Shown: piece after piece, positions 2,839 through 37,226 of the stretch
Numbering within the stretch: position 1 is the first letter of the stretch
Layout of the letters: each line of letters starts with the position of its first letter
NCBI GenBank assembly: GCA_947631035.1
Contig: CANRJW010000001.1
Coordinates: forward strand, 5,254-69,253
Source: an uncultured Bacilli bacterium
GTDB taxonomy: Bacteria > Bacillota_I > Bacilli_A > RF39 > UBA660
DNA length: 64,000 nt
Direction of reading: 5' to 3'
Position numbers and translations under genes: made by a program
Notes under the pieces: model-generated
Databases searched by the model: none
The model's input: the letters and a program-made list of their open reading frames with translations, nothing else
What the model was told of the DNA's origin: nothing

Positions 2839-2873
2839 TGAAAAAATAGAAGTCTAAAACGCTAAGACTTCTA
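2839..2873 (-). terminator. rho-independent terminator after the M23 peptidase gene; hairpin overlaps the stop codon
   Basis: tagaagtct-N9-agacttcta stem followed by a T-run on the minus strand. Confidence 0.5.
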
Positions 2874-3719
2874 CTCCTTTACTTTGATTTGGACAGCATC
2901 AATTTCCTTACCTAATATTCCAGCATAGCCAGAATTTGTATCGTCATATTTTTGTACCCATGATAACCAACTACCATTTTTTAAATGAACTCGATAAAGT
3001 AAAGTACAAGTATCGCTTTTCATTTGAATTCCATCAATGTTTTTACCAAGGTTTCCGGCATAGTCTTCCCTATCCTTTACATCAGGTAGCCATTTATTAT
3101 TCATTTCATGTACACGATACACGACATTTCCTTTTGTCAAGTTAATGGCAAGGCCACTCATGGCATTTCCTAAATTTCCAGCATAATCCAAATCATTAGT
3201 CACATTAGGTAACCATCTTTTTTTACGGCTATCATAAGACTGATAAATCACATCTATTTTTTCTATATCGTTAGGAAGATTGGCATCAATATAGGGAGTT
3301 GGGTTAATACGAACATCTTTATTATTTCGGACTTCAAAATGTAAGTGAACACCATAAGCTTTACCTGTTTCTCCCATTTCTCCTAAAATATCTCCCTGTT
3401 TTACTTGATCACCTTTTTTGACGTTAACATTTTTTAAATGGGCATATAAAGTATACATTCCATTATGATGTTTTAATTTTACATAATTTCCATAAGTTGC
3501 AGTACCCGTAGTATTTGTATCATGCTTTTGGCCTGTTGCTACTGAGACAACTTCACCATCACTATGAGCCATCACTTCCGCGATTTTATTTTTTTCTTTA
3601 ACAAGGTCAATTCCCTTATGAGTAATGGCATTGTACTTTTGGGTAACTTGATTTATAGCATTGTATAAGACTCTACTCAAATATATTCCTCCTCCTATGG
3701 ATAGAATATGTTGGAACAT
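2871..3719 (-). CDS. M23-family peptidoglycan endopeptidase with three C-terminal ~45-aa cell-wall-binding-type repeats
   Basis: GVHLHFEV (HxH) and YAHL motifs of peptidase M23; C-terminal repeats KWLPDVKDREDYAGNLG / RWLPNVTNDLDYAGNLG / SWLSWVQKYDDTNSGYAGILG. Confidence 0.8.
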   Translation of the reverse strand: MFQHILSIGGGIYLSRVLYNAINQVTQKYNAITHKGIDLVKEKNKIAEVMAHSDGEVVSVATGQKHDTNTTGTATYGNYVKLKHHNGMYTLYAHLKNVNVKKGDQVKQGDILGEMGETGKAYGVHLHFEVRNNKDVRINPTPYIDANLPNDIEKIDVIYQSYDSRKKRWLPNVTNDLDYAGNLGNAMSGLAINLTKGNVVYRVHEMNNKWLPDVKDREDYAGNLGKNIDGIQMKSDTCTLLYRVHLKNGSWLSWVQKYDDTNSGYAGILGKEIDAVQIKVKE

Positions 3720-3765: not shown

Positions 3766-5799
3766 TTAAATGGCTAGGACGATACGGAAACTACAATTTC
3801 CCCTCGCAATCCCATCTTCACCGAAAAAAGCAAATAAACCTCTTCGAATAGTATTTTGAAACTGTCCACCACGACAAAGCCACGGATGCGTAGTGTAAAC
3901 AAATACTGCATAATCTTGATAAAAATAACTCCAATGCCATCCTCCGCCAACATTAGTTCCTATAGGTCCTATTTCTCCTATTGCATCTCCTAAAATTCGA
4001 CGATTCCAATGGGTTTGGTCAGCCCAATATTGGTAACTATCATAATATTTAGAATCTGCAAAATCTATTTTTCCTCCTGAGCCATAATCAACTTCTTTAT
4101 TCCCCTCTTGTAACATCACTCCCGCTACATATTCCCATGAACCACCGGACATGTCGAAGATGCCTGTATTATTTTCTGTGGTACTTGCTTTTTGACTTGT
4201 TGGGTATACGTAGGAAACATTATTACTTTCCTTTGGAGTTGTAGTTGCATATTCGTCCTTAGAAAAACCTGTATCAGCTCCATTTATTGCTACTACACCG
4301 GTTACATAATTTTGACTATTATTAACATTTACTTCGGTACATTTACCATTATTACATCTTCCATAAATAGAATTTGTAAGATAAGCAACGGCTCCCCACT
4401 CTGTATTCTTCATCATATGACTTTCTAATTCTCTTTTATACCCATAACTTGTTTGATAGGCATTCGATACGTTTATATTTCTCCATGAATAAACATTTGG
4501 TTTTATGATAACTTGTTCTGATTTATTTTCATTTTTTTGGGCATCTTCCACTTTTGTAGCTCCTTTATATCCTGTTTCAAACTTGCCGACCCACAATCCT
4601 TTAGCTCCTTCAAAGGCTAGAAATGCTGGATGCGTCATCCAATCTCCATAGCCACAACTTCCTCTTTCTCCTGATTCTGTTGGGGTAGTACATTCATTTG
4701 GATTTCCATCATCAGTATCTTCTATTCCAAATCGTATCTCAATTGATGTCGTTGGACCTTTATTGGAAAGTTCACTGCTGGCTGGTAATGCTTCAGTATA
4801 TTCCCCTAACTTATCGTCAAATAACTTATAACTATATTTTGGTATCCATACAAAATAACTTTCGATATCTTTCTCTTCTATTGTTGCCCCTACGTCTGGT
4901 TCTTCTGCTCCATCTGTTAGTATAACAGCATTCGCCCATCTCTTCTCTTCATAGTTATACCAATCATGGGATAAATCTGCTCTAGTAACTGTTCCATTAT
5001 CACTTATAATGACAGGTATGAGTTTATCGTTTGGAGTTGGTTCTACTTCTGCTAGTGTATTGGTTGATAGTAAAGCAATTTCTCCTTTACTATCTTGATT
5101 TCCTAATACTGGGTCTGCTCCATGTAATTTTGGTTCATTATAAACTGCTAAATCATTCATACTTCCATCTACTACTATTTTACTAATAAAAATTTTATTC
5201 ATTGCTTGGTCTTCTATTGTAACACTTTCGTCCATCCATAGTTTTATTGTATATGTTTTTGTATCACTCTCATTTAATGTTCCTTTTATTAATTCTCTTG
5301 CTTCTACTGATTTATAATCTTCTCCTTCATAGGTACTTTTTCCTTTTGGATAATTGAATAGTAACTCTTTTTGGCCTCCATTAAACTCTACGGCTATATA
5401 TTCACTATTTAATAAATTATCTTCTTGGCCGTTTTTTTCCATTAACTTCTCTAGTTTTACTGTATAATCCACTGTTGTTTTACATATATTTGTGATTTTA
5501 AATTGATAAGGTGTCAAATTCTTGGCATCTTTATCTTCTATAGGATAAGTCTTTTCTAAACGGATATCATTTTTTTCTTCTGTTAAACTTAATTTTAAGC
5601 AACCACTTTGTACTTCATTAATTCCAGTTTGAGTTGCCGTTGTTGTCCACCAGGCATAACTTGTTCCTACTAAAATTAATAATCCTGCTATAATTCCTAT
5701 AAATATTATTTTGATTCGTCGTTTGGGTTCCTTTCTATTATTATCTAATATACCCCCCCCCCAGACGACTATTTTCACTGGTTGGGAGGTTCTTTTCAA
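3766..5799 (-). CDS. Phase-variable surface-protein candidate: SipW-type leader plus TasA/camelysin-like N-domain, with a C-terminal FGE-sulfatase (SUMF1/DUF323)-like domain. Coordinates follow the TTG-initiated track ORF; the Shine-Dalgarno-linked ATG at 5809 is out of frame across the G10 tract
   Basis: GTSYAWWTTTA resembles the TasA GGTWAAFND SipW-cognate motif; LKLSL..PIEDKD..YQFKITNI pattern as in TasA; C-terminus NTEWGAVAYL / SGGSWEYVAG / LCRGGQFQNTIRRG resembles FGE-sulfatase motifs; paralogous to 11848..13596. Confidence 0.6.
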   Translation of the reverse strand: MKRTSQPVKIVVWGGGILDNNRKEPKRRIKIIFIGIIAGLLILVGTSYAWWTTTATQTGINEVQSGCLKLSLTEEKNDIRLEKTYPIEDKDAKNLTPYQFKITNICKTTVDYTVKLEKLMEKNGQEDNLLNSEYIAVEFNGGQKELLFNYPKGKSTYEGEDYKSVEARELIKGTLNESDTKTYTIKLWMDESVTIEDQAMNKIFISKIVVDGSMNDLAVYNEPKLHGADPVLGNQDSKGEIALLSTNTLAEVEPTPNDKLIPVIISDNGTVTRADLSHDWYNYEEKRWANAVILTDGAEEPDVGATIEEKDIESYFVWIPKYSYKLFDDKLGEYTEALPASSELSNKGPTTSIEIRFGIEDTDDGNPNECTTPTESGERGSCGYGDWMTHPAFLAFEGAKGLWVGKFETGYKGATKVEDAQKNENKSEQVIIKPNVYSWRNINVSNAYQTSYGYKRELESHMMKNTEWGAVAYLTNSIYGRCNNGKCTEVNVNNSQNYVTGVVAINGADTGFSKDEYATTTPKESNNVSYVYPTSQKASTTENNTGIFDMSGGSWEYVAGVMLQEGNKEVDYGSGGKIDFADSKYYDSYQYWADQTHWNRRILGDAIGEIGPIGTNVGGGWHWSYFYQDYAVFVYTTHPWLCRGGQFQNTIRRGLFAFFGEDGIARGNCSFRIVLAI
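5753..5762. repeat. Homopolymeric C10 (G10 on the coding strand) tract inside codons 13-16 (WGGG) of the TasA-like gene; candidate slipped-strand phase-variation switch
   Basis: Read directly; the only long G/C run in an ~30% GC window apart from its twin at 13550-13559. Confidence 0.9.
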
Positions 5800-5995
5800 A
5801 TTCTTTCATTTGTTTTTCTCCTCCATATCTTAATCTAATTCTACCACAAATTTTCCTCTTTGTTCAACCAAACTTTTTTACTTTTTCCTATCATTATGCT
5901 ATCTTATATCGTTATGCATGACATTGATATCACTATGCAAGCATAATTTTATCTTAAAATAGTATATTATTGAAATAACCAAGGAGAAAATTTTT

Positions 5996-6178
5996 ATGAA
6001 CAAAGACGTTATATTTGTTAGAATTGATGAAGACTTAAAGAAAAAATTAGACATGATTGCCCTAGAAGAACAAAGAAGTTTAAATAATTTGGTAGTTCGA
6101 ATTCTTACTAAATTTATTATTGACTATGAAAAGAAATCTTTAAATGAAAAAGCAACCACCGAAACAGAAAAATCATGA
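5996..6178 (+). CDS. Small ribbon-helix-helix (CopG/Arc-like) DNA-binding protein candidate
   Basis: 60 aa; VIFVRIDEDLKKKLDMIALEEQRSLNNLVVRIL fits a beta-strand then helix RHH pattern; AGGAGA RBS; 3' end overlaps the convergent sigma-factor gene by 6 nt. Confidence 0.4.
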   Translation: MNKDVIFVRIDEDLKKKLDMIALEEQRSLNNLVVRILTKFIIDYEKKSLNEKATTETEKS

Positions 6179-6823
6179 TGCATAATATTCACGAATTTTA
6201 TCTATTCCTTTTTTTTCGTAACGTGAGACCATGACTTGGGTCTTTTTTAATTTTCTTGCTACTTCACTTTGAGTCATATCTTGAAAGTAACGATACTCTA
6301 AAATCTTTCGTTCTTCTCCACTTAATTGTTCTAGCCCTTCTAAAATGACTAATCTGTCTTCTATCGACATATTTTCATTTAAAGGAATGGTTTCATATAA
6401 ACTTCTTTCATCATCCATACTTTGGTCTAAACTACTTACCATGATAGACCCAGCAATAATGGCTTGTTCAAGTTCATAGATATCCATTTCTAAGAATTGA
6501 GCTAGTTCTTCATTTGTGGGAATTCTTCCCCATTTTTGAGCAAGACTATATCTAGAAGTTTCAATCGATTTATAAAGACGTAAATAATCACTACTTACTT
6601 TGATTTGTTTTTGCATAGCAAGTTTATACATTTCACCAAAAATAGATTTAAAAGCATAACTTGAAAACTTTGCCAAACTTTCTTCTTTATAATTTTTAAT
6701 AGCTTTTAAAATACCCAATACTCCGGCTTGGTATAAGTCTTCTCTTTCAATTCCATAAAAACTTCGATTGGCAATTTTATAAATCAATCCGGTATTTTCT
6801 TCAATTATTTTTTCAGTTGTCAT
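6173..6823 (-). CDS. Sigma-70 family alternative sigma factor (SigF/SigG/SigB-like)
   Basis: Region 2 (LIYKIANRSFYG..EDLYQAGVLGILKAIKNY) and region 4 HTH (ERKILEYRYFQDMTQSEVARKLKKTQVMVSRYEKKGIDKIR). Confidence 0.8.
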   Translation of the reverse strand: MTTEKIIEENTGLIYKIANRSFYGIEREDLYQAGVLGILKAIKNYKEESLAKFSSYAFKSIFGEMYKLAMQKQIKVSSDYLRLYKSIETSRYSLAQKWGRIPTNEELAQFLEMDIYELEQAIIAGSIMVSSLDQSMDDERSLYETIPLNENMSIEDRLVILEGLEQLSGEERKILEYRYFQDMTQSEVARKLKKTQVMVSRYEKKGIDKIREYYAS

Positions 6824-6831
6824 TTGTCCTC

Positions 6832-7173
6832 CTATATTTTAATAGTCTTTAAAGCAGAGAGTTCATTTTCTAATTCTTGAATATGTAAGTTCTTTATCCA
6901 CTTTTTAATGGTATCTTTTGCTTCACAAATATAAATTTTTCCTTTATTGATACGAATCGCACTTTTGGTATTTAAAAGAGCATTGACACCACTTTCATCG
7001 ATAGAATCTAATTCATATAAATTGTAAACTAAATATTTTATTTTATGCTTTAAAAGAACTGGAACTAAATAATTATTTAATTCGTAAGTCTTTTTGCTAG
7101 TTAAATTACCTTTCAAGCGAACAAATAAAATACCTTTATTGTACTCTACGTCCATTTGAAACATTTTTATCAC
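6832..7173 (-). CDS. STAS-domain anti-sigma-factor antagonist (SpoIIAA/RsbV-like)
   Basis: 113 aa; the LYELDSIDESGVNALL segment keeps the phosphorylatable Ser context (DxSG); immediately upstream of the sigma gene. Confidence 0.65.
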   Translation of the reverse strand: MIKMFQMDVEYNKGILFVRLKGNLTSKKTYELNNYLVPVLLKHKIKYLVYNLYELDSIDESGVNALLNTKSAIRINKGKIYICEAKDTIKKWIKNLHIQELENELSALKTIKI

Positions 7174-7257
7174 CTGCTATATGAATATAGTAAATTTTTA
7201 TAACTTTTTAAACACTTTCGACAAAACTTGTCAAAAGAAGTGGGTATAAAAAAAAAT

Positions 7258-7908
7258 TCATGCATTATGAATTTTCCTTTGTTTAATGTCTTTTATTTTT
7301 TTCGTCTTTCTTTTTTTTAAGAAAAGGAGAAGGAAAAAGAATAGTCCCATACTAAGTGTAGGAAGTACAATTAAAAACTTTTCTAATATATAAAACATAG
7401 GTGTATCAAAAGTATCTAAATAATAGATGCCAAAAATATCTTTACTATTTTCTTCTGTTACAATATCTTGTTCGAGAATTTTATTTAAACTGGACATGGC
7501 AGTCAGTTGTAAATCTTTGGGAATCACTTTGGCAATTCCTTTAATGGTAACACTACTTGGTGAATTTGTATCCACAGTATTATAAGAATACGTATAAATT
7601 TCTTCTAATTGCTTTCTTGTTTCTTCATTTAAGTCTACGAGATAAACATTTTTAGCATCCCAAATAAAATACGTTTTATGTTCTACTCCAGCATAATCAT
7701 GAATGGCAAAATAATCGGTCATAACAGAAGCTTCGATTTTAGCATATTGATTGCTTTCCTTGACATTTTTTAATTCTTGGGCAGTCGTAAATGTTTTTGC
7801 ATTCGTAAAATAAATATAGAAAAGAAAAACAACACTAATGGCAAGAAAAAGAATTCCCAAACAAAAGCATTGTTGATTGTTGATTTGTACTATTTTTCCT
7901 ATTTGCAT
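7258..7908 (-). CDS. Membrane protein of unknown function (N- and C-terminal TM helices flanking an extracytoplasmic domain)
   Basis: Hydrophobic segments CLGILFLAISVVFLFYIYF and LIVLPTLSMGLFFFLLLFL; no recognisable motif. Confidence 0.4.
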   Translation of the reverse strand: MQIGKIVQINNQQCFCLGILFLAISVVFLFYIYFTNAKTFTTAQELKNVKESNQYAKIEASVMTDYFAIHDYAGVEHKTYFIWDAKNVYLVDLNEETRKQLEEIYTYSYNTVDTNSPSSVTIKGIAKVIPKDLQLTAMSSLNKILEQDIVTEENSKDIFGIYYLDTFDTPMFYILEKFLIVLPTLSMGLFFFLLLFLKKRKTKKIKDIKQRKIHNA

Positions 7909-7975
7909 CTATATTCCTCATCCCCATAAAGAATATATCAAAAATTCATTTTATGGTAAATATTTTTTTAATAAA

Positions 7976-9460
7976 TTAAGCCTCTTCCATTAAGTTTTTA
8001 ATTTTTTCTTTGGCAACATTTACAGAATCGGTATCCGGTAGCATCACATAAGATTTGAGTGATTTATAAGAATACGTATAATCATAAGCATCTGTTCCTG
8101 CTAAAGTATATTTTTCAATCGTCCAAGAAGGCATTTCTTTTATTTGTTTTTTTACTAAAGAAGTAATATTATCCGTACCAATATTGGTGATAAATTTTCC
8201 ATCTAAAGCATTTAATAAATCATTATATTTTAACAGAATCTTTTTGGATAAAACTTTATTTAAAATTGCTTCTAGTAATTGTTGTTGATGTTTTACACGT
8301 CCGACATCTCCATCGGATAAGCTTTTTCTTTCACGGGCAAAGGCTAGTGCTTGTTTGCCGTTTAAATGATTCATTCCTTGTTGAAAAGAATAACTTACTA
8401 CTTCATCTTCGACATAATAGGCTTTAAAGGCTTTATCCACATTAACATCAATTCCCCCTAGTTCATCGACCACTTTAATTAAAGAAGTAAAGTTTACTTT
8501 GGCATAATAGTTAATGTCTATAGAAAGTAAGTCTTCTACTGTTTTAACCGATGTATCGATACCATGAATACCAGCATGGGTAATTTTATCATTTAAAGTG
8601 GTATTGATACCATGTAATTTGACATAATAATCTCTTGGAATACTCGTTAAAAGCACTTTATGGGTAACGGGATTTACCGAAACTACCATATTGACATCAC
8701 TTCTAGATACACTGGTTATTTTTCCATAAGTATCAATTCCTGAAATGAAGATATTAAAAGATTGTTTTGTTGTATCCACATTTTTCACTAGTTCGTCTTT
8801 TAGTTCTATATCAATCGAAAATTCATAAATAATTCTTTCTTTTGTTTTTAATTCATTGCTCATTTCTTCTAACATTACTTTTTGAGCATCTTCCATTAAT
8901 ATAGCATCAACTTGATAATTGTATAAAGCATCTAGTAAATGCTCTGTATCTTCTAATTCGATATATTCTAAAGAAGTTTTTTTATTTAAATGTTGTTTTG
9001 CTTCAGTAAGTTCTTCTTCATTGGATTTTACAAACCCTATTTTTTTATCTTTAATATCATTTAGTTTATTATAAGAACTGGTATTTAAAACAATAACATT
9101 ATAATTCTTTGTATTCATATTGCCTTTTCCTAAATTATGTAAAAAAAGAAAAGTATGAACAAAATAAAGAAGTAAAACAAAAGTCCCAATCATTTTTATT
9201 ATCGTAAGTACAGTAGCAAAGCATCTTCTTTTCCAACCTCTTTTTAAAGTTAAAGAAAGCATGCCAAAATCAAACAAAATAAGAAGTGCACCTAAAAGAA
9301 GAAAATAAAAAAGAGGTAAAACATTCAATAAAAAAACAGCAATGAGTAATAAAATGGTCAGTAAAAAAGAAGCCAAAAACAAACGACGATATGTTTTTTT
9401 CTTCACTCTTTTTCTTTTGGGATTGGTATTTTTGATATTTTCTTTACTAGTATTTTTCAT
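7976..9460 (-). CDS. LytR-CpsA-Psr (LCP) family cell-wall polymer transferase with a polytopic N-terminal membrane region
   Basis: VVSVNPVTHKVLLTSIPRDYYVKLHG...GIDTSVKTVEDLLSIDINYYAKVNF is the LCP domain core. Confidence 0.85.
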   Translation of the reverse strand: MKNTSKENIKNTNPKRKRVKKKTYRRLFLASFLLTILLLIAVFLLNVLPLFYFLLLGALLILFDFGMLSLTLKRGWKRRCFATVLTIIKMIGTFVLLLYFVHTFLFLHNLGKGNMNTKNYNVIVLNTSSYNKLNDIKDKKIGFVKSNEEELTEAKQHLNKKTSLEYIELEDTEHLLDALYNYQVDAILMEDAQKVMLEEMSNELKTKERIIYEFSIDIELKDELVKNVDTTKQSFNIFISGIDTYGKITSVSRSDVNMVVSVNPVTHKVLLTSIPRDYYVKLHGINTTLNDKITHAGIHGIDTSVKTVEDLLSIDINYYAKVNFTSLIKVVDELGGIDVNVDKAFKAYYVEDEVVSYSFQQGMNHLNGKQALAFARERKSLSDGDVGRVKHQQQLLEAILNKVLSKKILLKYNDLLNALDGKFITNIGTDNITSLVKKQIKEMPSWTIEKYTLAGTDAYDYTYSYKSLKSYVMLPDTDSVNVAKEKIKNLMEEA

Positions 9461-9562
9461 AAGTTCCTCACTTTATTCTAAAAACATTATAACATAGATA
9501 AAAAAAGGACTGCTAAAAGTTCACAATCCTTTTGTAAATTAAGAGTCAAATTTAACAGAGTC

Positions 9563-10708
9563 TTAGAAAACAAGACCACTGGTTATAAATTCAAATAAAC
9601 GGATGCCTAAATCCCAAAGACTTGCTTTTGGTACGTCTTCTTTAGCAATAACATTTACTTCTTTAATACGATTTCCGCCCTTGTCAAGAACTTCTAAATA
9701 GCCCAAAACATCGCCATTTTTGATTGGAGCATTTACGGGTTCTACCACGAGATTATAATGGTACTCTTCTTTGGCATCACTTACCTTTTTTAAAAGAGTG
9801 ATGTCTTGGTCAAGGTATACTTTAGTATTTAATTTTTTTCCTTTTTCAATAGAAACTTCTCCTAAATCGTTTTCTTTGGTAAGTAAAAGGTCTAACTTGT
9901 AAGTATTAAAGCCATAATTTAGCATACTTACTGTATCTTTACTTCTTAAATCACTCGTTTCGGCATTCATTACAACGGATAGAAGGCGCATGTTTCCTCT
10001 TTTCGCAGTGGTGGTAATACAATAGCCAGCTTGATTCGTAAATCCAGTTTTTAAACCATCAACCCCTTCGTAAAACCTGACCAATCGATTGGTATTGACA
10101 AGCCATACACTAGAACCATCTGGTTTTTTCAAGTAATCTTCATAAAGAGAAGTATATTCTAAGATACGTTCGTGTTTTAATAATTCTTTTGCCATAACCG
10201 ACATATCTCGTGCCGTTGTATAATGCGTTTTACTTTCTAGTCCATGGGGATTATCAAAATGGGTATTTTTAAGTCCTAATTCCTTGGCTTTTTCATTCAT
10301 TTTTTCAACAAAAGCGGAAACACTACCACTTACCTTTTCGGCCATCGCAACAACGGCATCATTGCCACTTGCAACAGCAATTCCTTTTAAAAGTTCATGA
10401 ACTTTATATTTTTCTCCGGTTTGTAAAAAAATTTGACTACCACCCATACTTGATGCTGTATCACTAATAATGACTTCATCTTCAAAAGAGATTTTACCTG
10501 AGTCAATGGCTTCCATAATTAAAAGCATGCTCATGACTTTAGTCATAGAAGCAGGAGCCAGTTTGGTATCGGCATTTTTTTCATAGAGTACTTTTCCCGT
10601 TGATACTTCAAGAAGTATGGCACTTTCACTATTTGGGGCTAATTCTTCCGCCTGCACTTTTCCAATAAAACAAAAACTTAAAAGAATAAGGATTCCAATT
10701 TTTTTCAT
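9563..10708 (-). CDS. dacA: D-alanyl-D-alanine carboxypeptidase (PBP5/DacA-type serine peptidase S11) with a signal peptide
   Basis: ASMTKVM (SxxK), SGNDA (SxN) and KTG motifs; C-terminal PBP5-C-like domain. Confidence 0.85.
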   Translation of the reverse strand: MKKIGILILLSFCFIGKVQAEELAPNSESAILLEVSTGKVLYEKNADTKLAPASMTKVMSMLLIMEAIDSGKISFEDEVIISDTASSMGGSQIFLQTGEKYKVHELLKGIAVASGNDAVVAMAEKVSGSVSAFVEKMNEKAKELGLKNTHFDNPHGLESKTHYTTARDMSVMAKELLKHERILEYTSLYEDYLKKPDGSSVWLVNTNRLVRFYEGVDGLKTGFTNQAGYCITTTAKRGNMRLLSVVMNAETSDLRSKDTVSMLNYGFNTYKLDLLLTKENDLGEVSIEKGKKLNTKVYLDQDITLLKKVSDAKEEYHYNLVVEPVNAPIKNGDVLGYLEVLDKGGNRIKEVNVIAKEDVPKASLWDLGIRLFEFITSGLVF

Positions 10709-10803
10709 AGTATCACCTAATAAAAACTATGTCTAGACAGGCAAAATATGACAAAACTCTCCAAACTTATTTTGTAGAATAAAAAGGAAAGAAGGTAGAA
10801 AAA

Positions 10804-11829
10804 ATGAAGAAAAAGGAATTTATTTTTGCATGTAGTATTACACTCGTTTTTATGAGTGTTTTTTCATATTTTATTTATCAAGAGAATAATAATAAGAAAA
10901 GGATTGTGAATGTAATGAATGAACAAGAACAAACCCTATTTTATATTAAAGATACGAAAGAATTTAAAGAAGAGTATCAAAATATGTATGCTCAAATCCT
11001 CTATCATGAAGAAGATAGTTTTTTTCATGAAATCAATTGTTTACTCCACTTAAATTATACCCCTCAAGAAATTAATAATCTTTACAATTATGTCCATCAT
11101 GAAAATATTGAAAAACTTTTAGATAATGAAAAAATAGATTTAGAAGCTTATTATGAAATTCCCAATTTTGAAGTGGATAAAATCCCTCGATATGAACAAT
11201 ATCAAGAAAAGAATAAAACATCTTTACAAGAAGCCGTTTTAAAAGTAAATATTGGTTTAGATCATGACTTTTATACACAAATAGAAGAAATCGAAGATAA
11301 AGAAGACTATCAGGTTTTGGTAAACAAATATCGTACTTTAAAAGAATATGAACCAAAGGATTTAAAAAGTTTAAGTTATGATGCCAGGTATCAATTAAGA
11401 GAAAAAGCAGCGGATGCTTTTGAAGAGTTGGTAAGTTTTGCTAAATTAGAAAATGTTTTTATAAGACCCTATAGCGCTTATCGCTCTTATAGTTATCAAC
11501 AATCTATTTATAATACTTATATACAAAAAGATGGGCGAATACTTGCAGATACTTATTCGGCAAGACCAGGGCATTCCGAACACCAAACGGGACTGGCTGT
11601 TGATGTTTGGAGTGAAGGAATGAATGACATTAGCGAAGAAGATGCCCTTTGGTTAAAAGAAAATGCCTATAAATATGGATTCATTGTTCGTTATCCAAAA
11701 GAATCGGAAAGCATCACTGGCTATATTGAAGAACCATGGCATTTAAGATATTTAGGAAAAGATTTAGCTAAAAAAGTATGGGAAAGTCAACTTACTTATG
11801 ACGAATATTATGACTTATATTTAAAGTAG
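10804..11829 (+). CDS. VanY-type D-Ala-D-Ala carboxypeptidase (peptidase M15B) with an N-terminal TM anchor
   Basis: SAYRSYSYQQ, SEHQTGLAVD and EPWHLRY motifs of the VanY family. Confidence 0.8.
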   Translation: MKKKEFIFACSITLVFMSVFSYFIYQENNNKKRIVNVMNEQEQTLFYIKDTKEFKEEYQNMYAQILYHEEDSFFHEINCLLHLNYTPQEINNLYNYVHHENIEKLLDNEKIDLEAYYEIPNFEVDKIPRYEQYQEKNKTSLQEAVLKVNIGLDHDFYTQIEEIEDKEDYQVLVNKYRTLKEYEPKDLKSLSYDARYQLREKAADAFEELVSFAKLENVFIRPYSAYRSYSYQQSIYNTYIQKDGRILADTYSARPGHSEHQTGLAVDVWSEGMNDISEEDALWLKENAYKYGFIVRYPKESESITGYIEEPWHLRYLGKDLAKKVWESQLTYDEYYDLYLK

Positions 11830-11847
11830 AAAAATCTTTTACTTTTT

Positions 11848-13596
11848 TTAATTATTTCCTAAATAGGTAATTCTAGCATAACCATCGCCTTGTTTAGCAT
11901 TTTGACTAATAGCCTCGCTACTTACACTATCCGTAGTGTAAGTTTTTGTTTCGTCTGCATCACTTGTTGTACATTGGTAGCAATACATAGCTTTATTAGT
12001 TAGAAGAGGATTTCCAATGTAGCCAGAACCTCCTCCACCTCCAGCGTGTCCTCGTGAAGAGCCCCCTCCACCGAAGTATCCTCCACCTCCTCCGGCGCCA
12101 CCACAACCACCAATACTTGAATCTATTCCGCATCTATCCCCCTCAATATAGTAATAATTACCTCCTTGGCCAAATTTACCCTTTGCATTCTCACTTTTTT
12201 TATGAATTTCATATCCACCCTCGTTTTGGCTTCCTCCAATACCAGTATAATTAGTTGAAGAATTATTAGGATGAGTATTTACAATATTATTATATCCATC
12301 TTTTCCTTTGAATCCACCACCTGAGCCACCGTAAATATCATTACCATAACTATAAGTTCCACCATTACCTCCGCCACCTCCAGCAACAATTAAGACTTGT
12401 TCTTTTTGAGATTCTAATGTTGATAACAATCCTGAAACTTTAGCTATATGGGTAGCGCCTCCGCCACCAAAACCAATTTGGCTTACTGTATTTCCTGTTC
12501 CTCCACCATTATATCCACCAAAATATTCATTATTATTTCGTATATTTGAACCTTGCCCTCCAACATTAACAAATAATGTATCACTTGAAGAAATTGTATA
12601 TTCTCCTACTGAATAACCACCTAGACCACCTATATTTTTGGCTTCTTCACTTTCTGCACCACCCTGAGCTCCCCATACTTCTAATTTGTAATTTCCTTTT
12701 GGTAAACTGATGGCTTCTTCTTTTCCTGTATAATCAAAATCAATGGTTGTGTCTTTCTCTAGTGTGGTAAACTCTATGTTACAACTTACTTGATTTTTCT
12801 CGATTCCGGTTATCTCGACTCCCCATGTTTCTTGATTCCATTTTCCACTTCCTTTATCACATTTTACTTCGACTGCATAGTTTTCTTCTTCCTTGTTTGG
12901 CATTTCTTCTTGCATCTTTCCATCTACTAACATTGCTAATTGTATATCTCCATCTTGTGCTATTTCATTTTGGTCTCCTGTTATTACTACCTTGGCTTCA
13001 AACTTTCCGTTTTGACTATCATTATCCGCACTTTCGTCCATCCATAATCTTACTTCATGTTCTACGTTTGCATAGGCAGTTAGAGTTCCTTTATATATGT
13101 TATAGGCTTCTATCGCTTCATAGTCTTCTGTCTCTATCTTTGATGTACTATATTCTTCTGTTAATTTTTTTTTAACTTTTTTATCTATCTTGACCGCGAT
13201 ATTCTTTGATTCGATTCTTTTTCCATCTATTTGTAGTACCTCTATATTTACTTTATAATCTACTCCGGTATTACAGATGTTTCTTATTCTAAAATGAAAG
13301 GGTTCTAGTTTTTCTCCTTCTTTATCGGTTAAAGGATAAGCTTTTTTTAAACTTATAGCTTCACTTAATTCGTCCATTTCTATTTTCAAGCAACTTGTTC
13401 CTAAGATATTCATTTCGTTTTGTTTTGTTGTTGTGGTCCACCATGCATAACTAAAAGACACTACTGTTATGAGTGTTACAATACTTATTAAACTTACTAC
13501 TATTTTCTTGAGTCGTCTTGGTTCCTTTCTATTATTATCTAAATAATAACCCCCCCCCCAGACGACTATTTCCACTGGTTGGGAGGTTTCTTTCAA
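11848..13596 (-). CDS. Paralog of 3766..5799: SipW-type leader plus TasA/camelysin-like N-domain, fused to a C-terminal ALK-type glycine-rich domain (GAQGG family). TTG-initiated track ORF; the Shine-Dalgarno-linked ATG at 13606 is out of frame across the G10 tract
   Basis: N-terminus MKETSQPVEIVVWGGG..SYAWWTTTT and the LKIEMDE..PLTDKEGEKLEPFHFRIRNICNTG TasA-like pattern; C-terminus LEVWGAQGGAESEE..GGLGGY..VGGQGS..GGGGG blocks typical of bacterial/ALK glycine-rich domains. Confidence 0.6.
   Translation of the reverse strand: MKETSQPVEIVVWGGGYYLDNNRKEPRRLKKIVVSLISIVTLITVVSFSYAWWTTTTKQNEMNILGTSCLKIEMDELSEAISLKKAYPLTDKEGEKLEPFHFRIRNICNTGVDYKVNIEVLQIDGKRIESKNIAVKIDKKVKKKLTEEYSTSKIETEDYEAIEAYNIYKGTLTAYANVEHEVRLWMDESADNDSQNGKFEAKVVITGDQNEIAQDGDIQLAMLVDGKMQEEMPNKEEENYAVEVKCDKGSGKWNQETWGVEITGIEKNQVSCNIEFTTLEKDTTIDFDYTGKEEAISLPKGNYKLEVWGAQGGAESEEAKNIGGLGGYSVGEYTISSSDTLFVNVGGQGSNIRNNNEYFGGYNGGGTGNTVSQIGFGGGGATHIAKVSGLLSTLESQKEQVLIVAGGGGGNGGTYSYGNDIYGGSGGGFKGKDGYNNIVNTHPNNSSTNYTGIGGSQNEGGYEIHKKSENAKGKFGQGGNYYYIEGDRCGIDSSIGGCGGAGGGGGYFGGGGSSRGHAGGGGGSGYIGNPLLTNKAMYCYQCTTSDADETKTYTTDSVSSEAISQNAKQGDGYARITYLGNN
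13550..13559. repeat. Homopolymeric C10 (G10 coding) tract in codons 13-16 of the second TasA-like paralog
   Basis: Read directly; same position and length as the tract at 5753-5762. Confidence 0.9.
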
Positions 13597-13693
13597 ATTC
13601 TTTCATTTGTCTTTTCCTCCTCTATTATTACTTTTTATTCTACTCTCTTTTTCGTCTTTTGACAAGACATGAAAAAAAGGCCTATACAAAAGC

Positions 13694-15874
13694 CTATTTT
13701 CTACTCTTAACTTTTTTCTCTTTTTCTACTTTCTTTTCTTCTTTACCTTTTGGTTTTGGTAAAGCTTCTTTACGAGATAAATTTAAACGTCCTCTATTGT
13801 CATAGCCTAAACTCTTTACAACAATTTGGTCTCCAACTTTAAATAAATCACTTGGTTTTTCAATTCTTTCATGAGCAAGTTGTGAAACATGTACCAATCC
13901 TTCACAGCCACTCCATAGTTCAACAAAGCAACCAAAGTCTTCTACTTTTGTAACCGTTCCAGTATAGATTTCCCCTTCTTCAACAACACGTACAACGTTT
14001 AAAATCATTTCTTTGGTTTTTTTAATAATTTCTGGGTCCGTATGATAAATAATAACTCTTCCATCATCTTCTAAATCCACTTTAACAGCATCTTTATCAT
14101 TTACCGTTGAAACATTGCTTGATTCTAAAATAATCTTGGTAATCATTTCTCCACCACGACCAATAACATCTTTAATCTTTTCTGGGTCAATAGTGAATGT
14201 TTCAATTTTAGGTGCATATGGAGATAATTCTTTACGTGGTTCTTTAATACAATCGGTCATAACATCTAAGATTTCAAGTCGAGCTTTTTTAGCTTGGGCA
14301 AGGGCTTCTTTTAAGATGTCTTTTGTAACGCCTTTAATTTTAATATCCATTTGTAAAGCACAGATACCATCTTTTGTTCCGGCAACTTTAAAGTCCATAT
14401 CTCCCATGTGGTCTTCTAAACCAGCGATATCGGTTAAAATAGTATATTTTTTACCATTGGTAATAAGTCCCATTGCAATACCTGCTACTGGCTTTTTAAT
14501 TGGAACTCCTGCGGCCATTAAAGATAAACACCCAGCACAAATGGTTGCTTGACTACTTGATCCGTTACTTTCTAATATTTCACTTACAACACGAATGGTA
14601 TAAGGGAATTCTTCTTCGCTAGGTATTACTTGAGCAAGGGCTCTTTCTCCTAAAGCACCATGGCCGATTTCGCGTCGACCTGGGGAACCATACCTTCCCG
14701 TTTCTCCAACAGAAAATTGTGGGAAATTATAATGAAGCATAAAACGTTTTGAATCTTCTAATCCAAGGCCATCAAGTATTTGATGTTCTCCTAAAGCTCC
14801 TAGAGTTGTTGTTGCTAGGCTTTGCGTTTCTCCACGTGTAAATAAAGCACTTCCATGTGGTCGAGGTAAAATATCAACTTGGGCATCTAAATGTCTTATT
14901 TCGTCCATTTTTCTACCATCTGGTCTAATTTTCTTATCAGTAATTAAACGTCTTACTTCGTCCCCTTCAATGGTATCAACAACTTTTTTAACATCTTTTA
15001 AAATTTGTTCGATGTTTTCGTCATTTGCATAGATTTCCGCAAAATTTTCTAAAGTCGCCGTTTTTACTTCTTCAATACGTTCATAACTTGCTAGTTTATC
15101 TTTAATTTGAATAGCAGCAAGCATATCTTTGGTTGCATAATCTCTTACAGCACGTTCTAATTCTTCATCGATGGATGCAACAGCAAGTTCTTGTTTTTCT
15201 AATCCAATTTCGTCAATAATTTTTTGTTCAAATTCACATAACGTTTTAATATGTTCATGACCAAACATTAAAGCTTCTAACATATCTTTTTCGCTTAATT
15301 CTTGAGCACCAGCTTCCACCATACAAATAGCGTCTTTTGTACCAGCTACTGTTAAATTTAAACTACTTTGTTCTAATTGTTCAACGGTTGGGTTAATAAT
15401 AAATTCTTTACCAATTTTACCAACGACAACTCCAGCCACCGGTCCATCAAAGGGTATATCGCTAATTCCTAAACATAAGCTTGAACCAAATAAAGCAGCC
15501 ATAATAGGAGAATTGTCTTGATCAACGGATAAAACCGTATTGATTACTTGAATTTCATTTCTTAAGTTCTCATCAAACATGGGTCGTATTGGACGATCGA
15601 TAATTCTTGCGGCAAGGGTTGCTTCATCAGTAGGTCGCCCTTCTCTTTTAATAAAACCTCCTGGTATTTTACCAATCGAATATAATTTTTCTTGGTATAA
15701 AACGGTTAGTGGAAAAAAGTCTGCGGTAATCGTATTTTTTCCCATAACACAAACAGATAAAATGACTGTATCTCCATAACGAACTAAAACGGATCCATTC
15801 GTTTGCTTTGCTAGTTCTCCTGTTTCTACAACTAAATCTCTTCCTAAAAAATCTAATTTATATACTTTCTTCAT
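13694..15874 (-). CDS. pnp: Polynucleotide phosphorylase (PNPase)
   Basis: 726 aa; two RNase PH domains, KH and C-terminal S1 domain ([20 protein letters not shown]); lysine-rich tail. Confidence 0.95.
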
Positions 15875-29894: not shown

Positions 29895-30620
29895 TTAAAC
29901 ATATGAATCAAGTAATTTTTTTAAATCATTTTTCATTTCAGTAATTGTTGAATATCTTATTCCTTCTTTTGAAGATGTTGCCTTTAAAATAATAAAATTG
30001 GCAAACCAAGGCGCATTAGAACTCTTAAAAGAATATTCCTTTTTTAATTGTAATAATTTATTTGTATCAACATCTCCAAAATTTAATTCAGAATATAACT
30101 CATATAACATAACTCCTAAAGCATATATATCAAAATAAACAGAAACTTTATTCAATTTCAACTGCTCTAAAGAACAATATTTTTTAGTACCATATGAAAC
30201 ATACTCACCAATTTTTCGAGTATTAGCATAATCTATTAAATACAATTTTCCATCATTGCGAATCATAATGTTACTAGGATTTAAATCACAATGTACAAAA
30301 CCATCTTTATGCAAAAATTCTAAAATTTTTGCAACCGAATATAGAATTTCAATATTTTTTTTTAAAGAAATACTATTTTTAATTTTATTATAAGATAACC
30401 CATTTATATATTGATAAACAATATATTTTTTATCAATATCATATTTATATATTTTAGGTAAAAAAGAATATTTTTTTATAATAGAATATACTTTAATTTC
30501 ATTTTTCAATTGTGAAATATCCTTTTCTTTTTTTAAAACCTTTATAAAATAATCGTGATTCGTTTCATTTATATGATAAAAAATACCATTTTGATTTTCT
30601 AATTTTTTTAAAATTTCCAC
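29895..30620 (-). CDS. Minimal protein-kinase-like protein (Ser/Thr-kinase fold without a canonical glycine loop); GTG start
   Basis: HCDLNPSNIM (HRDLKPxN catalytic loop), DYA (DFG-like), GTKKYCSLEQ (APE-like), DIYALGVMLYEL (DxWSxG). Confidence 0.55.
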   Translation of the reverse strand: MEILKKLENQNGIFYHINETNHDYFIKVLKKEKDISQLKNEIKVYSIIKKYSFLPKIYKYDIDKKYIVYQYINGLSYNKIKNSISLKKNIEILYSVAKILEFLHKDGFVHCDLNPSNIMIRNDGKLYLIDYANTRKIGEYVSYGTKKYCSLEQLKLNKVSVYFDIYALGVMLYELYSELNFGDVDTNKLLQLKKEYSFKSSNAPWFANFIILKATSSKEGIRYSTITEMKNDLKKLLDSYV

Positions 30621-30894: not shown

Positions 30895-33800
30895 TTATCC
30901 TCCTATAACACCAATGCTCTGAATATAATTTTCATAATCCACATGATTATCAAACATTTTTTTGCCATTTTTTTGGTCATATACTATATAATCCGTACCA
31001 TTATCTTTAGATACTGTAATAATACAAAGTGGTATTGTTTTATCATCAGCTTTGATATATTCCGTTGCAGTGCTCACCTTTATATTATCTTGTTTATTAA
31101 ATAAAATATATTTCAAATTGCTAAAATAAACTCGAGCTTCAAATCCATCCATATATTCTGGAATTGGGGTATTTTCAAAATCTTTAATTAAATCAACAGT
31201 ATCAGTATTCTCCGTACTAGGTTTAAATACATTGTTGGCCTTTTCTAAAAGTTTATCAAAATATTCATTTTCTTTAACGCCAATTTTTTTATCCACATTT
31301 GCCCATGTTGTTCCATATTGTGCTAATACAGAATTATCCAAATTTACTAATCTTTTATGTGATAATTTATTCATATATCCATATACAAAACCAGCTGTAG
31401 CAAAACCACATTTGCAATTAACTAAATCATTTGATTTATTGATAGCATCGGTTGCATCAGCAACAATAACGCGATTTTCATCTACTTTAACTTCAACCCA
31501 TTTATGGGAACCCACACTATCACCACCAATAATGGATACATTTTTTTCTTCTATTCCACTAGCAATTAATAACTCGGCATATAACTGACTCCATCCTTTA
31601 CAAATGACATTATTGCTCTCTAAATTTTGAAAGTTAAGATTTTTATTATAAATAGTTGCCTTAATACCTAAATTTTCTTCATTATCATCCATAAAAGTTG
31701 TATCATAATGTACCCGTTTATTCAATTCATAATAAATTTTACGGGATTTTTCTAATATGGACCATTTTGAATCAATTAGTGACAATATTTCGTATTTTAT
31801 GTAATTTAAATTTTCTGTTGTAGTTGAATTGGTTGGATTTGAAATATCCCATTTTTCTGATAATTCTGCGCCTTCTATTTTATGTGCAACCTTATCATAC
31901 CAATCTCTAGCAACAATTTTTGATATTTTTTTCTCTTTTATAAAGTTGGCTAAATAAGAATTATCCCTGAAGTTTTCATAAGTATCATACTCGTATTTAG
32001 AAACTTTTTTATATTTTAGTTTACCTTCCTGTTGAACTAAAACAAAATATTCTTTTGAAGTAAATGCATTTTTTAAATTCCAATCCCCCTCATATATAAT
32101 AGCACTATCGTCTAGATTTCGAACCTTTAATTTTGAACTAGTAATAGTTTCTAAACCAGGATTTACTTTAAGAGCTGTAATTTTCACAGGTAAATCATTT
32201 AAATTTGTAGCCACTGCTCCTACTTCTGGAATACCAGCAAAAAATATTTTTTTACCAAAATTCATTACAGAATTACTATTTTTCAATAATTGACTCGACA
32301 TAATTTTATCAATATCTTTTTCACTAGAAAAATAATATAATCCTTCTTTTAAAATTTTATCATTCAAACCTTTAAAATAATTCGTGTCAGTATATATAAA
32401 TCTATGCATAGTCGAAATTAATTTATTGGACATTGCATTTAATACATTATGGCTTTGATAATTTGTTAATAACACATTCAAGTCAGGTAATTTCTTTTCA
32501 TTATTTAATGGTACTGTTACTTCTTCAGTAATATTTTCATCCGTATTTAAATTTTCTTCATTTGAAATAGTTATTGAATCTACTCGGATATCACTTTTAT
32601 CTTCTTTTAATTCTTCAGCATTATTTTCTTCTAATATGTCTGTAGCTTCATCAGCCTCTAGCACTTCTATTACATTATCATCCAATTTTTTGCTACTGCT
32701 AATAGAATTTTCTGCTATTTTGACATCAGGTCCTAAAGATTCAAAAGTTTTCTTTAACATATCACTGAACTCATCACCGAATATTTCTTTAAGAGTGGTT
32801 AAATATTTCTTATCTGTTAAAATTAAACTCGTATAAGTTGCAAACATCTCATGAAAAGAAATTAAATCACTTCCAATAGGATGATTTTCATAATATTCAG
32901 CACTATGACCATATCGAAGACGATATTTTTCATTTTGATTAAATGAAATCTCCGGATTTTTATAAACACTACAAATAATACTAGATAAATCTATTAAATC
33001 AGGGTATTTTTTAGACATATTCTCATAGGTTAGTTTTGTTATCTTATCGGATACCTCATAAGTAGCAACTTGCTCGCGTAATTCGGCACCACTTATATCT
33101 TTCAAATGTTCTTTTAAAGAAGGATGACGTTCAAATAAATTTTCTTTAATTTGCGTAAAATTTGTTTTATTGTAATTTTGTAATTCTTTAGTAACTACTT
33201 CATCTAATGTTGATACATTATATTGTTTCATGACACTTTTTTGGGCATCATTTAAACATTCATTGCGAGATTTTTCAATTTGTTCTTGTAATGAAATAAT
33301 TTTTTCTGAATTGACATTTTTTATAGCGCGTCCGATTATATTTTGATAATCGTCAGGTAATTTTTCATTTAATACTTTTTCAAAGAAGGCATGTCCCATT
33401 TCATGAAATAAAGCCCTAGAATTTTTCTTATCCGCATTAAGATAAACATTTCCGTTGTTTTCATAACTTCCTTCATTTGTTTCATAAAAATGAATTTGAT
33501 CTTTCATATTTAAAAGTAATTCTCTTATTGCTGTTGCTTCTGTATTGCCTTTTTTGGCAGAATCTAAAAGATAATCACTTACAAGTTTGACAAGTTTTGG
33601 ATCACTTTTTCCATCCTGAGTAAGCGTTTTTATAAAATGGCTTTCTTTCGATTCAAATATTGACTTTATCTTATTTTTGATTTTATCATCAATTTTTAAA
33701 TCCAGTATTGTATTCCCTTTTGAATTTGTTCTAATATTATATTTACTAGTATCCACTTTAGATAATTTTAAAATATTTTCTATAACAGAATAATCTATTT

Positions 33801-37116: not shown

Positions 37117-37226
37117 ATTAATACATCCTTTCTTCTTAGAGGCATAGAAAAACAACCCTACTTTATTATTACTTAAATCTTATCATATTTTCAGGTTGTC
37201 TTCAATCATTTTAAATTCTTTATCTA

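Follow-up and report, generated by a model that had tools for sequence, protein, structure and literature searches.

The window analysed here, a 64-kb stretch of DNA from an uncultured, low-GC Bacilli bacterium, carries two paralogous genes on its reverse strand, which we call parA and parB and whose long open reading frames (ORFs) had already been recognized in an earlier note on the same DNA. The features of both genes and of their surroundings are listed below.

3766..5799, reverse strand: parA long ORF, 677 aa from a mechanical TTG start
3769..5142, reverse strand: parA C-domain, FGE-type C-type-lectin fold, TaqVP-like
5143..5652, reverse strand: parA N-domain, beta-sandwich of about 170 aa with two conserved Cys
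5653..5715, reverse strand: parA hydrophobic signal/anchor, ending VGTSYA/WW (AF2 helix 9-33)
5753..5762, reverse strand: parA G10 tract, 47 nt past the ATG
5807..5824, reverse strand: parA Shine-Dalgarno sequence GGAGGAG (5824-5818) and true ATG (5809-5807), from direct sequence reading and frame analysis
5838..5867, reverse strand: parA promoter-like site TTGAAC-18-(TG)TAGAAT, from a consensus scan
5996..6178, forward strand: HicB/ribbon-helix-helix-like ORF of 60 aa (PF05534, E 2.7e-5), divergent from parA
11848..13596, reverse strand: parB long ORF, 582 aa from a mechanical TTG start
11860..12711, reverse strand: parB C-terminal ALK/LTK-type glycine-rich domain (PF12810)
12949..13503, reverse strand: parB signal/anchor (13444-13503) and N-domain (12949-13443), homologous to those of parA
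13550..13559, reverse strand: parB G10 tract, 47 nt past the ATG
13604..13621, reverse strand: parB Shine-Dalgarno sequence AGGAGGA and true ATG (13606-13604), from sequence reading and frame analysis
13637..13665, reverse strand: parB promoter-like site TTGTCA-17-TAGAAT, directly past the pnp terminator-like hairpin (13678-13695)

Each gene would form a transcription unit of its own, with a promoter-like site, a strong Shine-Dalgarno sequence and an ATG; the TAGAAT box upstream of parA aligns with the one upstream of parB. From the ATG onwards, the predicted layout of both comprises a 57-nt leader ending in poly-G, a basic stretch, a hydrophobic signal/anchor ending SYA/W, the N-domain and a gene-specific C-module. 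A putative link between parA and the divergent HicB/ribbon-helix-helix-like ORF, for which a gene call also exists in the related locus L001, is possible. The neighbouring genes are those that the earlier note had described (STAS, a SigB/F/G-type sigma factor, LCP, PBP5/S11 and VanY), except for the M23 peptidase, which had been placed between the paralogs and is found at 2871-3719, downstream of parA and outside 3766-13596. The proposed cell-wall remodelling island does not travel with the family, whose relatives adjoin topA, dnaJ/rnhB or thrS.

The start of both proteins is revised here. The leader M-K-x-T-S-Q-P-V-x-I-V-V-W-G-G-G, formerly taken as shared by the paralogs, belongs to the wrong reading frame, that of the TTG ORFs, whose starts have no Shine-Dalgarno sequence at usable distance; the true ATGs (5809 and 13606) are situated 10 nt upstream, behind GGAGGAG and AGGAGGA, respectively. 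Because the leader had been read in the wrong frame, the poly-G switch had been missed. The ATG frame encodes MKEFE(K/R)NLPTS(E/G)NSRLGGG, and a frameshift at the G10 tract parts this leader from the long ORF, so that in parA the ATG frame hits a TAA after 22 codons (5809-5741). According to the frame analysis, G9 or G12 fuses the ATG to the long ORF, giving proteins of 680/681 aa for parA and 585/586 aa for parB, and G8, G10 and G11 lead to a stop after about 20-23 codons in either gene. A change of one unit in the tract thus toggles both genes between an intact and a truncated frame.

The two leaders are identical at 54 of 57 nt, with 55% nucleotide identity in the N-domain, and the rare codons CTC (3.3% of Leu), CTG (0.9%) and GGG (6.8% of Gly) are used in all eight of the distinct leaders; both the leader identity and the rare codons support selection on the leader at the nucleotide level. 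The LPTS(G/E) of the leader peptide was considered as an LPxTG-like sortase signal, but this reading was rejected: the motif is N-terminal of the anchor, where the peptide is predicted to be cytoplasmic, and the CCTCCCAAC that encodes it shows no nucleotide variation and uses rare codons. A leader-peptide profile had no match at E<=1 in a set of 5.8 billion proteins, a pattern scan of JGI metagenomes for the leader returned just two matches, both unrelated and high-GC, and no Rfam family was found in the leaders; the sole Rfam match, the snoRNA GlsR14 (E 0.011, inside parA), was taken as chance.

The two G10 tracts are the only G/C runs of at least 7 nt in the 64 kb, where 0.17 matches to G8 are expected and all those observed fall inside the two leaders, so that chance is a very poor explanation for them. 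Tract length differs at otherwise identical loci: at the parB locus, L024 is identical to the window over 3568/3568 nt and has G10, L025 differs from the window only in its G9, which opens the ATG frame, and L026, compared over 2906 nt, differs only in its G11. The contigs showing G9, G10 and G11 have only about 4x coverage, so homopolymer errors could account for some of these tract lengths. All three observations of the parA tract give G10, the same G10 being found in L001/L027 and in L028. Across several MAG lineages the tract recurs 44-53 nt past the ATG, either out of frame (OFF; G8 in L004, G10 in L006 and L020) or in frame (ON; G9 in L021 and L023, and also L022), and in more distant relatives a G10 is placed in the promoter spacer instead of the leader. 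Database proteins likewise begin with the in-frame leader (P0030, P0039, P0108, P0125, P0128), with an out-of-frame MKIVVWGGG (P0001, P0006, P0043) or at an internal Met.

It is very improbable that this pattern arises from errors made at homopolymers when intact genes were sequenced or assembled, or from pseudogenes, even though the low coverage of the comparison contigs (about 4x) and the treatment of parA and parB by gene callers as N-terminally shortened ORFs would suit such an explanation. The same G10 occurs in two paralogs and in independent assemblies, the position of the tract is kept among MAG lineages, the tract is maintained against a strong codon bias, the long ORFs carry no other lesions, tracts are also present in the promoter spacers of distant relatives, and a G run of at least 8 in a genome of 30% GC is not built by random error. 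Every OFF copy keeps an intact downstream ORF of 500-680 codons. Most copies observed are OFF, which fits contingency loci and fits decay too; by exact look-up, the predicted ON proteins are absent from the protein collection, in which this genome is represented by its OFF calls alone.

The predominance of G10 (parA in three observations, parB, L006 and L020) and the rare GGG codons that make up the run could also be accommodated if the tracts were fixed and transcriptional slippage or +1 ribosomal frameshifting provided a constitutive, low-level recoding in place of heritable phase variation of the DNA. A predicted hairpin, in which the invariant upstream CCUCCC pairs with the G run (z -4.5 and -3.9 versus shuffles in the window leaders), would suit recoding as well, but relatives show it less strongly (z -1.8 and -2.4) and, because its outer helix does not vary and covariation is seen in only 2 of 11 pairs, we treat it as a candidate structure. 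Lengths of 8, 9, 10 and 11 exist at the DNA level, including G9, G10 and G11 at the otherwise identical parB locus, and recoding is not required because in-frame G9 alleles exist; we consider it quite unlikely.

Downstream of the leader, parA and parB share the transmembrane/SYAWWTTT segment and the N-domain of about 170 aa, and diverge completely past about residue 200. The common N-terminal module with swapped C-modules that had been proposed for them is borne out by their shared N-domain and by the varied fusions among the 5172 cluster representatives (more than 5000 clusters at 50% identity) matched by the N-domain profile. This domain, for which Pfam has no model, always occupies residues ~27-190 of the matched proteins, and its fusion partners are DUF285 (the commonest C-module, in 13 of 80 proteins), LRR, Flg_new, GRD, Big_3 and PKD modules. 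A33 of the signal/anchor is nearly invariant in 75 relatives, and genes that lack the N-domain can have the same leader as those that carry it. Both genes are best explained as members of a large, unannotated family of cell-surface proteins in uncultured low-GC gut Bacilli, for which we found no experimental literature.

The glycine-rich, ALK-type C-domain attributed to parB is confirmed by a match of residues 296-579 to PF12810 (ALK_LTK_GRD; E 8.8e-38, 131.1 bits, cut-off 24.5) that spans positions 3-243 of the 243 in the model; unlike in other contexts of this domain, it is found here in a bacterial, membrane-anchored and apparently phase-variable protein. The C-domain of parA, for which an FGE-sulfatase-like domain had been suggested, has an FGE-type C-type-lectin fold, although neither window protein matches an FGE-sulfatase model (PF03781 in Pfam, E<=0.01; NCBIfam, E<=1); weak PF03781 matches occur in 23 of 75 relatives (best E 0.0017). 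The conserved Cys of the family, C354 and C366, lie in an insert and are not C-terminal. FGE-type C-type-lectin folds are those of TaqVP, TvpA and Mtd, variable proteins of diversity-generating retroelements (DGRs; PDB 5vf4, 2y3c, 1yu0; PMC6328139). That parA is itself the target of a DGR is close to refuted for this locus: no template-repeat copy of the parA or parB 3' ends is present in the 64 kb, the 3' region of parA differs between the window and L001 by a single 18-nt in-frame indel with no adenine-specific substitutions, and the family has no relatives in IMG/VR, INPHARED or PLSDB, which gives no sign of a phage or plasmid origin either. Unlike TaqVP, TvpA and Mtd, the lectin domain of parA is joined to a membrane anchor and to a sandwich domain at the N-terminus, and the family diversifies through paralogs and on/off switching instead of retro-mutagenesis.

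The earlier note had interpreted the paralogs as TasA/camelysin-like proteins with SipW-type leaders that form a variable fibre or surface layer with a switched tip chemistry. Such a model, in which a SipW-type peptidase would cleave the N-domain subunits, donor-strand exchange would polymerise them and the paralogs would supply alternative tips, is unlikely on the present evidence. Neither window protein matched a TasA/Peptidase_M73 model (Pfam, E<=0.01; NCBIfam, E<=1), PF12389 had no match in parA, parB or the 75 relatives, the N-domain profile retrieved no TasA from the PDB at E<=10, and hhalign against TasA gave E 0.12 with a probability of 0.5%. The SipW-type leader finds weak support in sub-threshold TIGR04088 matches in 11 of 75 relatives (best E 0.017), with none in parA or parB at E<=1. 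A SipW-like signal peptidase had been reported missing from the window, and accordingly a regular-expression scan of all six translated frames, crude and not HMM-based, found no box-B/box-D pattern in the window or in 14 related loci. Besides a TLxTC (sortase) pattern in a 60-codon open frame (61873-62052, forward strand), taken as chance, scanning the window for signal-peptidase and sortase motifs returned nothing. Unlike TasA/CalY fibres and archaeal bundling pili, to which no sequence-level relationship was detected, parA and parB have large C-terminal heads, neither a sipW nor a tapA partner gene was seen near them, and some family members lack the N-domain. They do not clearly belong to TasA-type fibres.

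Our preferred reading, to which we give a probability of roughly 70%, is that parA and parB are phase-variable surface-protein genes, switched on and off stochastically by their poly-G tracts and furnished with different C-terminal binding modules. Expression would be toggled when the G tract undergoes slipped-strand mispairing in replication, G9 (or G12) being the ON state, in which the ATG and the long ORF share a frame, and G8, G10 and G11 the OFF states, in which translation would end after about 22 codons; both genes would be OFF in the window. Switching is presumably frequent and reversible within the population. Judging from the domain types, the products would be surface exposed, cleaved at the signal and able to bind ligands, and independent switching of the paralogs would keep changing the set of surface or adhesive specificities that the population displays. 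The switched tip chemistry put forward earlier was right in spirit, as switching goes, although it would consist of a poly-G frameshift in each gene and not of a tip change on one fibre.

The poly-G/poly-C contingency genes of Neisseria, Haemophilus and Campylobacter, e.g. hmbR, nalP and mspA (PMC3786947, PMC3723659, PMC6321876), are surface-protein genes that have, as here, a G tract inside the 5' coding region that sets the frame and varies in length between otherwise identical sequences; several loci per genome switch independently, a property that parA and parB would share. Unlike those genes, parA and parB belong to an uncultured gut member of the Bacilli with about 30% GC instead of a Gram-negative pathogen, and their tract is in a leader nearly identical between paralogs with different bodies. 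The Mycoplasma Vlp, Vsa and Vaa proteins belong to multigene families in which the 5' region and signal are highly conserved and the exposed parts diverge; homopolymer tracts, placed either in the promoter spacer or in the 5' coding region, switch them. The parA/parB family resembles them in these traits and in having DUF285, a Mycoplasma-type domain, as its commonest C-module. It differs in that its proteins are not lipoproteins, its tracts are poly-G and not poly-A, folded binding domains (CLec, GRD, LRR) take the place of simple repeats in its exposed parts, and its organisms keep peptidoglycan genes.

A more tentative idea, improbable as it stands, is that the leader (Shine-Dalgarno sequence, ATG, invariant CCUCCC and poly-G) may be a portable module with two jobs, a translation toggle through slippage and, since it is nearly identical in many paralogs, a recombination site that lets chromosomal loci swap entire protein bodies, as well as a target of a large-serine-recombinase element. 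Hints in this direction are that in L026 the pnp-adjacent parB promoter and leader run into a different, FGE-type body, that in L002 the gene of a large serine recombinase directly adjoins the G tract, precisely at the point where homology to the leader begins, that the leader is found with and without the N-domain, and that metagenome contigs break inside family genes. If true, it would let uncultured gut Bacilli vary their surface combinatorially.

Phase variation driven by homopolymers is textbook knowledge for a few Gram-negative pathogens and mycoplasmas; to our knowledge, it is barely documented in commensal, uncultured gut Firmicutes/Bacilli, where attention went to invertible promoters and DGRs. 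Since gene callers mis-start or truncate its genes and assemblies break there, the family is systematically mis-annotated in MAG catalogues. The present analysis identifies it as a very large unannotated family whose members appear wired to poly-G in a coding leader or a promoter spacer, and the use of a DGR-type lectin scaffold without a DGR links paralogy, on/off switching and hypermutation as routes to surface diversity.

parA and parB both lie on the minus strand, each carrying a tract of ten guanines (G10) near its start:

3766..5799 (-), parA, ORF of 677 aa
5753-5762 (-), G10 tract of parA, 47 nt past the ATG
11848..13596 (-), parB, ORF of 582 aa
13550-13559 (-), G10 tract of parB, 47 nt past the ATG

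The two products have three parts in common, a basic stretch, a hydrophobic segment that closes with (V/F)(G/S)(T/F)SYAWWTTT (the anchor) and a beta-rich domain of ~170 aa (the N-domain), and no relatedness was found beyond about residue 200; the ORFs and their comparison thus bear out the earlier note, which had described two paralogs with a common SYAWWTTT segment and N-domain and different C-termini. In both genes the listed start is a TTG that lacks a suitably spaced Shine-Dalgarno (SD) sequence. An ATG lies 10 nt upstream of it (5809 in parA, 13606 in parB), preceded by GGAGGAG or AGGAGGA as SD and, further 5', by a TAGAAT promoter-like box, and the frame of this ATG differs from that of the long ORF. 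The leader MKxTSQPVxIVVWGGG that had been read as common to both is therefore a frame artefact, namely MKEFE(K/R)NLPTS(E/G)NSRLGGG in a reading frame shifted by one base. Frame analysis of both genes indicates that with G10 the ATG frame terminates after 22-23 codons, that G8 and G11 are likewise out of frame, and that with G9 or G12 the ATG continues into the long ORF (680/681 aa for parA and 585/586 aa for parB). Apart from these tracts, the window has no G/C run of at least 7 nt and no A/T run of at least 10 nt; chance would give just 0.17 G8 matches.

We propose, with a probability of roughly 0.7, that slipped-strand mispairing at the G tract switches parA and parB ON (ATG in frame) or OFF independently of each other. 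The ON state (G9 or G12) would yield full-length ParA or ParB, including MKEFEKNLPTSENSR, and the products would be anchored or secreted at the surface, each with its own predicted ligand-binding head. Both genes would be OFF in the window, and parB would be ON in sample ERZ27249588.

The PNPase protein of the window was found on three further metagenome contigs, with parB following pnp on each. One (L024) is identical to the window over 3568/3568 nt, with G10; another (L025) is identical save for a G9 tract, which opens the ATG frame (MKEFERNLPTSGNSRLGGGYYLDNNRKEP...); the third (L026) is identical across 2906 nt save for a G11 tract. For parA, the tract is G10 in the window and in two other assemblies; a fixed G10 combined with transcriptional or ribosomal slippage seems to us distinctly improbable. 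The same layout, an ATG, 44-53 nt with an invariant CCTCCCAAC and then the G run, recurs in other MAG lineages, where the related loci carry G8 (L004, OFF), G10 (L006 and L020, OFF), G9 (L021 and L023, ON) or an in-frame G10 variant (L022). Among the related database proteins, P0030, P0039, P0108, P0125 and P0128 begin with the in-frame leader and P0001, P0006 and P0043 with the out-of-frame MKIVVWGGG; an internal Met is the called start in many others of the family. All tract lengths were read from assemblies, not reads, and the contigs compared are covered just ~4x, which would suit sequencing errors or pseudogenes; however, intact ORFs of 500-680 codons are kept in all OFF copies, and we give this explanation very little weight. 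Two contigs end within these genes, L001 (1-70; window 12763-12817) in parB and L028 (4770-4819; window 5005-5055) in parA, and 6-8 mismatches cluster in their terminal ~50 nt, which suggests that parA and parB alleles co-exist in the samples.

parA and parB agree at 95% of the 57 nt that lead from the ATG to the last G of the tract; identity falls to 75% over the following 48 nt, 58% in the anchor and 55% in the N-domain, and is 36-56% upstream. The Leu codons CTC and CTG and the Gly codon GGG, which genome-wide account for 3.3%, 0.9% and 6.8% of the codons for their amino acids, occur in 8/8 distinct leaders collected. By these comparisons, the leader is constrained at the nucleotide level. 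In the predicted fold, CCUCCC is able to pair with the G run, enclosing a small inner hairpin, and the window leaders fold better than shuffled ones (z -4.5 and -3.9); a search of Rfam gave no family in the leaders. Given an invariant outer helix with minimal covariation, we advance a structural role for this hairpin as a hypothesis only.

Two loci raise the possibility of recombination at the leader. In L026 (2906-2996), behind the identical pnp, the parB-type promoter and G11 leader lead into another body ~38 nt past the tract, and its last 26 codons correspond to the N-terminus of the FGE-type relative P0004, not to the parB type with its ALK/LTK glycine-rich domain (GRD); this is either cassette replacement or an assembly chimera. 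In L002 (3646-3698), a gene for a 664-aa large serine recombinase (Resolvase, Recombinase, Zn_ribbon_recom) stops 24 nt short of a family gene that has lost promoter, SD and ATG, and likeness to the window leader starts exactly at TCT-G9; a mobile element may have integrated there. Both suggest that the conserved leader doubles as a recombination site; assembly effects could also account for both.

The C-terminus of ParB is a GRD, as had been claimed, and it is full-length (PF12810, 131 bits). ParA had been assigned an FGE-sulfatase module, and it gave no Pfam or NCBIfam match. Its AF2 model, built from 75 relatives (pLDDT 84, pTM 0.80), starts with a helix that reaches the SYA motif. A disordered segment leads on to a beta-sandwich (~48-200), which a disordered linker joins to a large C-domain (245-661). 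The FGE-subtype C-type-lectin fold of TaqVP serves generally as a scaffold for binding ligands, and its variable region occupies the extreme C-terminus (PMC6328139). In the C-terminal part of the ParA lectin domain, an 18-nt in-frame indel (3823-3840; GLFAFF) is the sole difference between the window and L001 over ~12 kb, mismatches at the contig end aside. We rejected parA and parB as DGR targets, a reading to which we assign next to no probability: within the 64 kb neither 3' end has a template copy, and that indel is the only allele difference in the 3' region of parA. Unlike DGR variable proteins, ParA would employ a DGR-type lectin domain without a DGR.

A TasA-type fibre with variable tips, as proposed in the earlier note, is in our judgement unlikely. 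Membership of TasA/camelysin was not borne out by sequence: Peptidase_M73 matched neither ParA, ParB nor 75 relatives, the N-domain profile retrieved no TasA chain at E<=10, and hhalign of the N-domain against a verified TasA sequence gave E 0.12 and a probability of 0.5%. By fold, the N-domain (model pLDDT 79) resembles TasA weakly. As to a SipW-type leader, the signal end G-x-S-Y-A (before W) gives TIGR04088 matches in 11/75 relatives, all sub-threshold, and a pattern scan for signal peptidases found none in the window or related loci, in keeping with the absence of a SipW-like enzyme noted for the window. On account of the missing sequence match, the weak fold likeness, the sub-threshold matches and the lack of a signal-peptidase pattern, we do not place ParA and ParB in the TasA family; they may assemble as TasA does, but this is unsupported.

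The surroundings had been described as a cell-wall remodelling island. Between the paralogs lie the HicB/ribbon-helix-helix-like ORF listed below, a SigB/F/G-type sigma, STAS, a 216-aa membrane protein, LCP, a PBP5/S11 carboxypeptidase and VanY; the M23 peptidase also placed there is instead downstream of parA. The order PBP5 ... STAS-sigma presumably resembles dacF-spoIIA of Bacillus. ORF sizes and order indicate a classical polC-nusA-infB-truB-rpsO-pnp stretch (only pnp and rpsO Pfam-confirmed), with parB inserted directly behind the terminator-like hairpin of pnp. Because relatives on other contigs adjoin topA, dnaJ/rnhB and thrS, we regard the island as a coincidence of position and not a conserved system. 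In L019, L020 and L021, small HTH_3 genes stand on the flanks of relatives, and these and the HicB-like ORF could be local regulators. PBP5 and LCP stand upstream of the STAS-sigma pair, and the syntenic contig L001 bears a CotZ-like gene. The features concerned, and others in the window, are:

2871-3719, M23 peptidase, downstream of parA
5996-6178 (+), HicB/ribbon-helix-helix-like ORF, 60 aa, divergent from parA, 6-nt overlap with the end of the sigma gene
6173-7173 (-), STAS (SpoIIAA-like) and SigB/F/G-type sigma, adjacent with a 9-nt gap and no anti-sigma kinase ORF between
29895-30620, Ser/Thr-kinase-like gene, flanking the next
30895-37155 (-), 2086-aa ORF, no Pfam match, internal duplication of ~250 aa (NFVGVNEGIEKNGLYHF... 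/ NYFKGLNDKILKEGLYYF...)
37397-38971, IS66 transposase, on its other flank
57476-58615 (-), Fic/DOC-domain protein, adjoining the next
58637-60829, heavy-metal P-type ATPase

A profile restricted to the N-domain retrieved 5172 representatives (50%-identity clusters) at E<=1e-3, in which the domain always stands right behind the anchor (residues ~27-190); these proteins are 190-1900 aa long. The C-terminal modules of 80 of these representatives include DUF285 (13), several LRR types, Listeria-Bacteroides repeats, GRD (3), Big_3 and PKD, which are typical surface/adhesin modules; the swapping of C-terminal modules behind a common N-domain, claimed from two genes, recurs in the wider family. In L020 (3125-3500) and P0107, P0108 and P0112, the poly-G leader and anchor run directly into a lectin-type C-domain without an N-domain. 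Host labels read uncultured Bacilli or "Tenericutes" MAGs and Candidatus Ventrenecus, and searches of IMG/VR, INPHARED and PLSDB gave no relatives. In more distant relatives (~38% identity), a G10 lies between -35-like and -10-like hexamers, flanked by TTGAC(G/A) and TATA(A/C)A...TAA(A/G)AT, and precedes the gene by 28-128 nt:

L009 77-86, promoter-spacer G10
L010 9797-9806, promoter-spacer G10
L015 9856-9865, promoter-spacer G10

Poly-G tracts thus accompany the family in two architectures, coding leader and promoter spacer. The earlier observation was real, although its most informative feature, the poly-G leader, had been misread: parA and parB are probably a fresh case of a known mechanism, poly-G contingency loci, in an unannotated and very large family of predicted surface proteins of uncultured gut Bacilli.
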